From assembly GCF_003334315.1 (NCBI RefSeq), contig NZ_QOWR01000001.1: a stretch of DNA of 64,000 bases; one strand, given 5' to 3'. The notes under the pieces were generated by a model. That model did no database searches, was not told the origin of the DNA, and worked only from the letters and a program-made list of their open reading frames with translations. This document shows positions 38,410 through 41,629 of the stretch, in pieces; position 1 is the stretch's first letter, and the number at the start of each line of letters is the position of its first letter. The position numbers were made by a program, and so were the translations under genes. This stretch comes from Escherichia coli (lineage in GTDB: Bacteria > Pseudomonadota > Gammaproteobacteria > Enterobacterales > Enterobacteriaceae).

Positions 38410-39519
38410 TCACTTGGCTGCCGTGGATGAACCGTCGGCGTGCCACTGGAAGACACCAAAATCAAATCCCTTAAGATCGCCTTTTTCATCCCAGTTCAGC
38501 GGCCCAATCACGGTGTTTGCACCGTTAGCTTTTAAATCTTTCACCAGCGCCAGCGGCTCATCGCTGCCAGTACGCTCAAGGGCAGTCGCCAGAGATTGCA
38601 CCGCCGCGTAGGTGATCCAGACATAAGGCCCGGACGGATCTTTCTTGTCTGCTTTCAGCGCATCAACGATGCCCTGGTTTGCCGGATCCTGGTCATAGCG
38701 TTTTGGCATAGTGACCAACATGCCTTCGGCAGCATCACCGGCAATATTCGACAATGATGCGTTACCCACACCTTCCGGCCCCATAAACTGAGTTTTCAGG
38801 CCAACGGAACGGGCCTGGCGCAGCATCTGCCCCATTTCCGGGTAGTAACCGCCGTAGTAAACGAAGTCGATGTTTTCTTTTTTCAGGCGGGCGATCAGCG
38901 CGGAGAAATCTTTCTCCCCGGCGGTAATGCCGTCGAAGAAGACGACGTTGGCGTTAGCCGCTTTCAGCCCGTCCTGCACCGAACGCGCCAGCCCTTCGCC
39001 ATACTGTTGTTTGTCGTGAATGATGGCGATGCGCTGGGGCTTCACCGTCTCAAGAATGTATTTTGCCGCCGTTGGCCCCTGGGAAGAGTCCAGCCCGGCA
39101 GTACGCATGATGTGTTGATAACCGCGTTGGGTCAGTTCCGGATTGGTCGCTCCCGGCGAGATCATCAGAATACCTTCATCTTCATAGATATCTGACGCAG
39201 GTTGAGTAGAAGAAGAACACAGATGACCAATAACGTATTTAATGCCGTCATTAACGATTTTGTTGGCGACCGCAACGGCTTGTTTCGGGTCGCAGGCGTC
39301 GTCATATTCCACGCCAACCAGCTTATCGCCCTTAATTCCCCCTTTGGCATTAATGTCTTTAATTGCCTGACGCGCGCCGTTAAATTCCATATCGCCCCAC
39401 TGGGCAATCGGGCCGGACATCGCGCCGACAACGGCGACTTTAATATCGTCAGCCATAGCGGTGTGTGAAATTGCCAGTGCAATCATCCCTGCGATGATAG
39501 TTTTCGCATTCCGTTTCAT
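38410..39519 (-). CDS. livK: periplasmic leucine-specific binding protein LivK
   Basis: Track ORF trimmed to [33 protein letters not shown] (ATG 39517-39519); 369 aa. Confidence 0.92.
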
Positions 39520-39942
39520 AGTCAAAAATCCCCATTCGTGATGTTGTGTTGCTTTGTTTTTATGTGTTAACAAATCAGACTGTTCTTTTTTTATACTGCA
39601 CTGTTTTTGCCTGTTTGATTAAGGGTTTAGCGCAGTATTTTGTGATAATAGCGATTAAAATCCCTATTTTTCAGTCGATTAAGAACAGATAATATTCTGA
39701 ATTTATTGATAGATAAACAGAAAAAAGCGCCGTTGTCAGCATAAAATAACGGCACAAAGGGCGGAATAATTCACTACCATTCAGGGGATTATGCTGGATA
39801 TTTTTCATTCTCTAATGTTTTAACTTTGTAATTATTGCTGTTAAAAAATTAATCACCTGCCAAAAGAAATAAAAAAGAGAAAGCCTCCGATTAAATTATT
39901 TCGCTACACTGGTTCCACTTTTGTGATTTACACGGGTTACCC

Positions 39943-40326
39943 ATGAAGCTGACCATCATTCGATTAGAAAACTTTAGCGACCAGGACCGGATTGACCTGC
40001 AAAAGATCTGGCCGGAGTATTCCCCTTCCTCTTTACAGGTTGACGATAACCACCGTATCTACGCCGCGCGTTTTAACGAGCGTCTGCTTGCGGCCGTGCG
40101 GGTAACCTTAAGCGGCACCGAGGGAGCACTGGATTCTCTACGCGTGCGGGAAGTCACCCGCCGTCGCGGTGTGGGGCAATATCTGCTGGAAGAGGTTTTG
40201 CGTAACAATCCTGGCGTTTCATGCTGGTGGATGGCGGATGCAGGCGTGGAAGATCGCGGTGCGATGACGGCGTTTATGCAGGCACTGGGATTTACGGCAC
40301 AACAGGGCGGCTGGGAGAAGCGTTAA
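39943..40326 (+). CDS. panM: PanD maturation/regulatory factor PanM (PanZ, YhhK), GNAT fold
   Basis: 127-aa ORF MKLTIIRLENFSDQDRIDLQKIWPEYSPSSLQV... Confidence 0.88.
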   Translation: MKLTIIRLENFSDQDRIDLQKIWPEYSPSSLQVDDNHRIYAARFNERLLAAVRVTLSGTEGALDSLRVREVTRRRGVGQYLLEEVLRNNPGVSCWWMADAGVEDRGAMTAFMQALGFTAQQGGWEKR

Positions 40327-40366
40327 TCGTCAAGTTTGATTTCAAAAGTGATGACCAACGAGAAAT

Positions 40367-40468
40367 TGCCTGATGCGCTACGCTTATCAGGCCTACAATG
40401 TGTGCTGCAATTTACTGATTTCTTTGGATCTTGTAGGCCGGATAAGGCGTTTACGCCGCATCCGGCAT
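40367..40468. repeat. BIME/REP cluster
   Basis: tgcctgatgcgctacgcttatcaggcctac ... gtaggccggataaggcgtttacgccgcatccggca between panM and livJ. Confidence 0.8.
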
Positions 40469-40525
40469 GAAGCAACGTACTCGATATTAGCAATTTGGCG
40501 GCAACCCAAAGATGCCGATTAATGA

Positions 40526-41629
40526 TTACTTCGCATCGGTCGCCGTGCCGTTGGCGTGCCAGTCAAATACACCGAACTCAAAGCCTTTCAGGTCGCCTTT
40601 CTCATCCCACGTCAGCGGTCCCATTACGGTATCCACGGAGTTCGCTTTCAGGTATTTGGCGATTTCAGCCGGATCGTCAGACTGATTCAGGCCCGCCTGC
40701 AAAGATTGCAGCGCGGCGTAGGTGGTCCAAACGAATGCGCCGCTTGGGTCCTGTTTTTTCGCTTTGATCGCATCAACAATGGGTTTGTTCGCCGGAACCT
40801 GATCGTAGTTCTTCGGCTTGGTCACCAGCAGCCCTTCCGCTGATTCGCCCGCAATGTTAGACAGCGAAACGTTAGCCACACCTTCCGGCCCCATAAACTG
40901 AGTTTTCAGCCCTGCCGCGCGTGCCTGACGCAGGATTTGCCCCATTTCCGGGTGATAACCGCCGTAGTAAACGAAGTCGATATTCTCTTTTTTCAGACGC
41001 GCCACCAGCGTTGAGAAATCTTTTTCCCCGGCGGTGATACCATCAAAGAACACCACGTTAGCATTGCCTTTCTTCAGGCCGTCCTGCACCGCTCGCGCCA
41101 GACCTTCGCCGTATTGCTGTTTGTCGTGAACGATAGCAATACGCTGCGGTTTCACTTTCTCAAGAATATATTTCGCCGCCGTCGGCCCCTGGTCGGAGTC
41201 CAGGCCGGTGGTGCGCAGGATCAGCTGATAGCTACGGGCGGTCAGCTCCGGCGCGGTTGCCGCTGGGGTGATCATTAAAATGCCTTCGTCTTCGTAGATA
41301 TCAGACGCAGGCTGCGTTGATGAAGAACAGAGGTGACCAATCACGTATTTAATGCCGTCGTTAACGACTTTGTTCGCCACCGCAACCGCCTGTTTCGGGT
41401 CACAGGCATCGTCATATTTTACGATTTGCAGTTTGTTGCCTTTAATGCCGCCTTTAGCGTTGATATCCGCAACCGCCTGCTCTGCGCCGGTAAACTCCTG
41501 GTCACCGTACTGGGCCACCGGACCGGACATTGCGCCCACGACCGCGACTTTAATATCTTCTGCCAGAGCCATATTGCTGAATGCCAGCGCGATACATCCT
41601 GCCAGTAACGCTTTACCCTTTATGTTCAT
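40526..41629 (-). CDS. livJ: periplasmic Leu/Ile/Val-binding protein LivJ (paralog of LivK)
   Basis: Track ORF trimmed to [33 protein letters not shown] (ATG 41627-41629); 367 aa. Confidence 0.92.

Follow-up and report, generated by a model that had tools for sequence, protein, structure and literature searches.

The livJ and livK genes of Escherichia coli as a diverged direct repeat flanking panM, with rare natural sequences that match its predicted deletion and duplication products

In Escherichia coli, the genes for two related periplasmic binding proteins, livK and livJ, lie in the same orientation on either side of an unrelated gene, panM, an arrangement that raises the question of whether the two paralogs behave as a direct repeat able to delete or duplicate the gene between them. 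We examined this question in a 64,000-nucleotide stretch of E. coli contig NZ_QOWR01000001.1 (RefSeq assembly GCF_003334315.1), referred to below in its entirety as the window. Our analysis indicates that livJ and livK are very probably an ancient, diverged direct repeat that occasionally misaligns, yielding a 2.1-kb deletion and the reciprocal duplication. A first-pass annotation of the window had described the two genes as same-orientation paralogs flanking panM, at coordinates that we find to be exact. The parts of the locus on which the argument turns are as follows.

38410-39519, minus strand: livK, encoding the leucine-specific periplasmic binding protein (LS-BP), repeat copy 1, 1110 nt and 369 aa (open reading frame, NF011933, PDB 1USG, RefSeq).
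39943-40326, plus strand: panM (panZ/yhhK), encoding the PanD maturation factor, the unique gene between the repeat copies (NCBIfam equivalog NF033213).
40526-41629, minus strand: livJ, encoding the Leu/Ile/Val periplasmic binding protein (LIV-BP), repeat copy 2, 1104 nt and 367 aa (open reading frame, NF011933, RefSeq).
38766-38871, minus strand: candidate crossover hot zone in livK, with 34-nt (38766-38799), 16-nt (38828-38843) and 26-nt (38846-38871) blocks identical to livJ (exact runs; natural junctions fall in or between the blocks).
40876-40981, minus strand: candidate crossover hot zone in livJ, with 34-nt (40876-40909), 16-nt (40938-40953) and 26-nt (40956-40981) blocks identical to livK (exact runs; natural junctions).

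Pairwise alignment of the two genes, which the first-pass annotation had proposed as the check on its claim, gave 825 identical positions in 1114 columns (74%), with 14 gap columns, and the two proteins share 283 of 369 residues (77%). Judged from this alignment, the similarity over 1.1 kb is far beyond chance. The maximal exact runs shared by the two genes are 34, 26, 17, 16 and 14 nt long and lie at a constant offset of 2110 bp throughout, with the 34-nt run starting at 38766/40876 and the 26-nt run at 38846/40956. Identity in 100-nt sliding windows is lowest in the 3′ third (61%) and highest at gene nucleotides ~600-750 (87%). The annotation had spoken of long identical stretches, and the strings that it quoted do occur in both copies (GGCCCCATAAACTGAGTTTTCAG at 38777 and 40887, CCCCATTTCCGGGT at 38830 and 40940, and CCGCCGTAGTAAACGAAGTCGAT at 38849 and 40959), but the word “long” needs qualifying, the maximum being only 34 and 26 nt. 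It had also assigned each gene its own leader; each gene does have a separate upstream region, and the leaders themselves lie outside the repeat. Local alignment of the livJ and livK leaders gave a score of 23, within the range of shuffled sequences (mean 17.8, maximum 28), and the sole likeness between them is GAATGGGGATT at the ribosome-binding site. Since the two leaders have no detectable homology, the repeat is essentially the coding sequence.

With the copies head to tail ~2.1 kb apart, and with panM and a bacterial interspersed mosaic element (BIME) between them, the pair can be regarded as a “homeologous” direct repeat, in which long exact runs (34 and 26 nt) are confined to the best-conserved core, at gene nucleotides ~600-760. 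If the two copies misalign, two products would result. The first would be a 2.1-kb deletion that removes panM, the BIME and the livK promoter, and that leaves a single livJ′-′livK chimera under the livJ promoter, directly upstream of livHMGF. The second would be a reciprocal 2.1-kb tandem duplication containing a livK′-′livJ chimera and a second panM. PanM/PanZ is needed for the maturation of PanD, and its loss should cause beta-alanine/pantothenate auxotrophy. The deletion would thus be expected to prevent PanD maturation and create a requirement for beta-alanine or pantothenate, and purifying selection against this auxotrophy may in turn account for the rarity of the deletion in nature.

Sequences that match the first product are present in public genomes. 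The first-pass annotation had predicted that recombination between the copies would delete panM, and we identified livJ5′-livK3′ hybrids located between rpoH and livH, with no panM, in the complete RefSeq genome EFF60 (NZ_CP086678.1, GCF_023373585.1) and in four draft loci (L012, L015, L014 and L006). EFF60 was flagged as the single outlier by both the livJ and the livK queries. Its locus reads livF-livG-livM-livH, a 1087-bp gene annotated “livK, frameshifted,” and rpoH-ftsX, with no panM and no second binding-protein gene. A three-way alignment demonstrated that this 1087-bp gene (L004, 4818-5904) consists of the livJ upstream region and the 5′ ~690 nt of livJ, followed by the 3′ part of livK. 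The switch follows a livJ-specific dinucleotide and precedes the next livK-specific site, within the block ACCCGGAAATGGGGCA(GAT), which is 16 nt long against the window alleles and 19 nt long against a closer relative, and which adjoins the 26-nt block. The hybrid also contains a separate 23-bp deletion, flanked by a 6-nt direct repeat (CGCTGG), that causes the frameshift. With its sole hybrid frameshifted, EFF60 is therefore without any intact LivJ/LivK binding protein, as well as without panM.

The four draft loci share the order ftsX-rpoH-hybrid-livHMGF and have no panM by blastn. Their sources and junctions are listed below.

L012, GCA_014888435.2, 114-kb contig: junction in the 34-nt block.
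L006, GCA_002972555.1, 171 kb, scaffold with gaps: junction in the 26-nt block.
L015, GCA_902847985.1, 39-kb contig: junction between alignment columns 702 and 708.
L014, GCA_026135125.1, 1.02-Mb contig: livJ nt ~895 joined to livK nt ~820, out of register, with 1-nt microhomology.

In EFF60, L012, L015 and L006, the hybrids are in register and the intervening DNA is absent. The junction in L014 is illegitimate, not homologous, and its hybrid (5001-6182) remains in frame and encodes 393 aa, including an internal repeat of 24 residues.

The reciprocal product is represented by one sequence, a 198-kb metagenome scaffold (ENA ERZ28637849; L013) with the order rpoH-livJ-panM-hybrid-panM-livK-livHMGF. 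The first-pass annotation had anticipated duplication of panM as well as its deletion, and this scaffold is the exact reciprocal arrangement, with a livK5′/livJ3′ hybrid and a second panM in two tandem 2098-bp units that are 100% identical. Comparison of the hybrid with its own flanking parents reveals an unbroken series of 136 livK-specific sites and then one of 171 livJ-specific sites, and the switch lies inside the 8-nt block GACAAACA. This single metagenome scaffold is the only tandem duplication of this kind that we identified, with none in the 5426 complete E. coli genomes.

How often do these rearrangements occur? All but one of the 5426 complete genomes contain panM and, from this count, from the hybrid query and from inspection of the locus, we infer that EFF60 is the one complete genome without panM anywhere. 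When the EFF60 hybrid was used as a query against the same 5426 genomes, only EFF60 itself matched, and the L013 hybrid found no duplication hybrid among them, the best matches being 80-90% identical. Two matches to panM were obtained in each of four complete genomes, and as many as four livJ/livK places in some. Since no livK5′/livJ3′ hybrid is found in the complete genomes, the two-panM genomes are not livK/livJ-mediated tandem duplications, and presumably carry larger duplications. Deletion and duplication events are both rare, with the deletion present in 1 of 5426 complete genomes.

The in-register junctions cluster in the most similar 120 nt of the two genes (gene nucleotides ~640-760), and misalignment there could proceed by RecA-mediated homeologous crossover or by RecA-independent template switching. 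RecA recombination in E. coli falls steeply with sequence divergence and is suppressed by mismatch repair, and Shen and Huang in 1986 reportedly placed the minimal efficient processing segment in this species at ~23-27 nt. (The concept of a minimal efficient processing segment is cited in PMC1904282.) Judged by uninterrupted blocks of ~23-27 bp, only the 34- and 26-nt blocks would be adequate RecA substrates; judged by overall identity, for which divergence should be a few percent or less, the pair falls short, at 74% overall and 61-87% in 100-nt windows. The repeat thus appears from its sequence to be a poor substrate for homologous recombination. The first-pass annotation had invoked homologous recombination and had held that a DNA identity too low or too fragmented would refute its claim. 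Identity is indeed only 74%, with just two blocks of at least 26 nt, and natural products exist nonetheless. Both predicted products are found, and what lacks support is the RecA sense of the term, with several junctions in blocks of 5-19 nt and one out of register.

The alternative that survives best accepts the rearrangements as real and attributes them to RecA-independent template switching or slipped misalignment between short identical blocks, not to RecA recombination. We consider this a serious candidate, just short of probable. It accommodates junction blocks of 8, ~5, 16-19, 26 and 34 nt, several of which are below the ~23-27-nt minimal efficient processing segment, and the frankly illegitimate junction of L014. 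It is also in keeping with a divergence of 26%, at which mismatch repair would strongly suppress RecA-mediated exchange, and with copies only 2.1 kb apart, a distance at which RecA-independent deletions, crossovers and expansions are prominent (PMC7145654). On the other hand, four of the five classes of deletion junction, together with the duplication junction, are in register and clustered in the most similar 120 nt, as homology-guided pairing predicts. In addition, branch migration and heteroduplex repair can shift the switch point, so that the length of a block cannot identify the pathway. Taken together, the junction blocks of 5-19 nt and the one illegitimate junction are suggestive of template switching at least as much as of RecA.

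A second alternative is that the repeat is effectively inert, and that every chimera in the databases is a de Bruijn-graph jump through shared k-mers. This has to be weighed against the material from which the chimeras come. When public protein data were searched with LivJ, many proteins of 367-369 aa with 86-92% identity to it were obtained, and scoring of the 84 residues that distinguish LivJ from LivK identified dozens of clean two-part chimeras (within P0027-P0116). These occur in two orders, LivJ-then-LivK proteins of 369 aa (the deletion type) and LivK-then-LivJ proteins of 367 aa (the duplication type), with switches clustered at residues 88-121, 167-180, 209-226 and 239-252. Genomic context was taken for the chimeras that lie on longer contigs. 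The commonest class (P0086), which has its junction in the 34-nt run, occurs almost entirely on Logan contigs of ≤18 kb from unrelated runs (among L017-L026), and the ENA examples carry coverage tags of 1.3-3x. Logan was assembled with k=31, and a shared 34-mer or 26-mer lets a path through a de Bruijn graph hop between the paralogs. Chimeras on short contigs and in metagenome-assembled genomes (MAGs) were therefore discounted, and those on short Logan contigs or at low coverage were rejected as evidence of rearrangement, being likely assembly chimeras. Most of the chimeric LivJ/LivK proteins in databases are probably de Bruijn-graph assembly chimeras that have spread into protein databases.

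The class P0086 pattern, the low coverage of the ENA examples, the coincidence of junction classes with the longest shared runs, and the almost universal integrity of the locus in complete genomes are all what an inert repeat would lead us to expect. We nevertheless regard an inert repeat as very unlikely. EFF60 is a finished RefSeq genome whose junction block of 16-19 nt is shorter than the usual assembly k-mers, and its additional, repeat-flanked 23-bp deletion is typical of a decaying pseudogene. Neither this junction nor those of L013 (8 nt), L015 (~5 nt against the window alleles) and L014 (out of register, 1 nt) could be produced by shared k-mers of at least 21, and it is these four loci that survive the artefact discount. 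The L012 and L006 deletions, which have their junctions in the 34- and 26-nt runs and which are represented by assembled sequence only, are plausibly real.

Against our conclusion that livJ and livK occasionally misalign to give both products, several of these observations must be set. Identity of 74% and fragmentation of the repeat place it far below what efficient RecA recombination in E. coli needs, and the locus is intact in 5425 of 5426 complete genomes. Most chimeras lie on 1-18 kb Logan (k=31) contigs or on low-coverage metagenome contigs, with their junctions exactly in the 26- and 34-nt runs, and the draft isolate loci and the L013 scaffold are known from assemblies alone, not from raw reads.

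The repeat itself is old. Comparison of livJ with livK gave a proportion of synonymous differences (pS) of 0.66, a synonymous divergence (dS) of ~1.57, i.e., near saturation, and a nonsynonymous divergence (dN) of 0.156. Identity to E. coli LivJ is 91-96% for its orthologs in Salmonella, Citrobacter, Klebsiella, Enterobacter and Cronobacter, compared with 77% for LivK. Since synonymous sites are near saturation and the orthologs are closer than the paralog, the duplication predates these genera. Where the two proteins have the same amino acid, the longest run of identical codons is 11, which is not significant in a permutation analysis of clustering (p=0.085). These values point to an ancient duplication with no sign of recent gene conversion. 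That the identical stretches reflect such conversion (concerted evolution) is improbable in the extreme: dS does drop to 0.77-0.91 in codons 201-260, the site of the 34- and 26-nt runs, but these codons also have the lowest dN, so that protein constraint and codon bias are sufficient, and the overall dS, the unremarkable longest run of identical codons and the fact that LivJ orthologs from other genera are far closer to LivJ than LivK is all speak against it.

Two further observations concern the binding-protein genes. Variants of LivJ in Shigella and E. coli (P0068, P0071, P0098, P0099 and P0109) are 336-345 aa long and have internal deletions of 20-30 residues, which suggests decay of livJ in some Shigella lineages. 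In addition, an Enterobacter hormaechei MAG (GCA_052209695.1) contains a LivJ-then-LivK hybrid (L016, 5001-6107), with the switch near residue 300, located between livH and an aminotransferase gene that adjoins rpoH. The same kind of livJ/livK fusion may thus exist in another genus, Enterobacter, as judged from this MAG.

The segment between panM and livJ is itself variable. In the window, it contains the following element.

40368-40466, no strand assigned: BIME of two repetitive extragenic palindromic (REP) sequences in inverted orientation, 40368-40396 (+) and 40433-40466 (-) (REP copies elsewhere in the window).

The first-pass annotation had noted a BIME between the two genes, and the element does have the features of this class, with at least two REP palindromic units in alternating orientation that belong to a family dispersed in the genome. 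Further copies of the same REP types occur in the window at 6322-6350, 6386-6419, 32894-32922, 34523-34556 and 34593-34621, where chance would predict 0, and, for a query that included the BIME region, the median number of places matched in an E. coli genome was 38. The REP pairs at ~6322/6386 and at 34523/34593 form two more BIMEs in the window.

In ~30% of complete genomes (1613-1625 of 5426), the BIME between panM and livJ is replaced by the toxin-antitoxin pair ataT-ataR (for example L001 3051-3851, L002 6024-6824 and L003 3523-4323, equivalent to window ~40327-40500), with ataT overlapping the panM stop codon by 4 nt. This insertion increases the spacing of livK and livJ to ~2.9 kb and places an addiction module within the deletable segment. 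Four records (H26-H29) resembled deletions, with much of the query aligned to a short stretch, and on inspection proved to be normal loci with the ataRT insertion; the appearance had come from the joining of alignment pieces and from a limit of 40 pieces that was reached through REP matches. In strain Z1323HEC0423, RefSeq annotates a 100-bp “hypothetical protein, frameshifted, incomplete” between panM and livJ (L005, 3320-3419), which may be the relic of an earlier insertion at this polymorphic spot.

From the deletion loci, we propose tentatively, as somewhat less than probable, that wild E. coli has lost panM several times independently through fusion of livJ′ to ′livK, with at least 4-5 distinct junctions, and that Enterobacter may have done so too. 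Such lineages should be beta-alanine/pantothenate auxotrophs in which a single chimeric binding protein, expressed from the livJ promoter, serves LivHMGF, with junctions concentrated in the 120-nt core. If they are real, the presence of ataRT within the deletable interval of ~30% of strains might disfavour the recovery of deletions.

The remaining features of the locus provide the context in which these products were recognized.

36162-37439, minus strand: livM (open reading frame).
37436-38362, minus strand: livH, the first permease gene of livKHMGF, directly downstream of livK (open reading frame and RefSeq annotation of identical or near-identical strains).
39520-39942, no strand assigned: 5′ untranslated region and promoter of livK together with the panM upstream region, an AT-rich divergent intergenic region (sequence; leader alignment against shuffles).
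41630-41853, minus strand: livJ leader and promoter region, which would drive the hybrid gene and livHMGF in deletion derivatives (hybrid loci retain livJ-type upstream sequence).
41854-41883, minus strand: terminator-like hairpin and T-run after rpoH, bounding the livJ upstream region (terminator scan).
41900-42754, minus strand: rpoH (open reading frame).

Over 38300-41900, the sequence matches strain CP53 at 100% identity and most of the 5426 complete E. coli genomes at 96-99%. The names livH, livK, panM, livJ and rpoH are those of the RefSeq annotation of CP53 and other strains, and the gene lengths in these strains match the open reading frames of the window. Both binding proteins match NCBIfam NF011933 over their full length and well above its cutoff of 477 bits (700 bits for the livK product and 695.9 bits for the livJ product), and PanM matches NF033213 over its full length (residues 1-126, 189.6 bits against a cutoff of 68 bits). 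The livK product, which of the two binding proteins was the one run against PDB, is near-identical to 1USG, “leucine-specific binding protein” (E=4.6e-232), with a second, weaker match to 1Z15, “Leu/Ile/Val-binding protein” (E=3e-183). Consistent with these identities, livHMGF is headed by the livK copy, and livJ forms a unit of its own upstream, adjoining rpoH. A scan of 38000-43000 with Rfam gave nothing at gathering thresholds, and promoter and terminator scans gave no sites above those of shuffled sequence, except the rpoH terminator.

Much of this locus has been described before. It is named livJ-panZ-livKHMGF in PMC10070963, and the livJ and livK genes of E. coli K-12 are attributed to Landick & Oxender 1985 and Adams et al. 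1990 in PMC2374795 and PMC6123439. The literature also describes how LIV-BP (Leu/Ile/Val) and LS-BP (Leu) both feed one LivHMGF translocon, and reports control by Lrp and control of both livJ and livK mRNAs by the small RNA GcvB. Previous knowledge therefore covers the gene identities and the paralogy, the translocon that both proteins share, the separate promoters and the REP elements. Our literature search, which had older subscription papers (including those of the Oxender laboratory in the Journal of Biological Chemistry) outside its scope, found no mention of natural livJ/livK hybrid, deletion or duplication derivatives.

That paralogous direct repeats recombine is a generic statement, and the paralogy and layout of livJ and livK have been textbook material since the 1980s. 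What the present survey adds is that sequences matching the predicted deletion and duplication occur in nature, rarely, and that many of the livJ/livK chimeras in databases are probably artefacts. With shared runs of 26 and 34 nt, livJ/livK would repeatedly give rise to chimeric contigs when metagenomes are assembled from k-mers, and to chimeric “proteins” in the databases that draw on such assemblies, which calls for caution on the part of database users. As a repeat with 26% divergence and 2-kb spacing that appears to yield both reciprocal products, the pair could provide a chromosomal system in which to compare homeologous recombination with template switching.

Comparison with known systems places the locus as follows. 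What we describe is the livJ-panZ(panM)-livKHMGF locus of E. coli K-12 itself: the genes, their order and orientation and their products all agree, identity to other E. coli genomes is 96-100% here, and we found no difference in the window. The argT-hisJ pair of Salmonella and E. coli likewise consists of adjacent paralogous binding-protein genes that share a translocon, HisQMP. As with livJ and livK, these are diverged paralogs in the same orientation that serve one ATP-binding cassette (ABC) translocon, with the downstream copy heading the operon, but there is no unrelated gene such as panM between them. The closest mechanistic parallel is the RecA-independent template switching studied by Lovett and co-workers (summarized in PMC7145654), in which repeats ~2 kb apart undergo both deletion and expansion with short blocks at the junctions. 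Those repeats were engineered, plasmid-borne, 100% identical and 101-787 bp long, whereas livJ and livK are a natural, 1.1-kb, 74%-identical pair in the chromosome.

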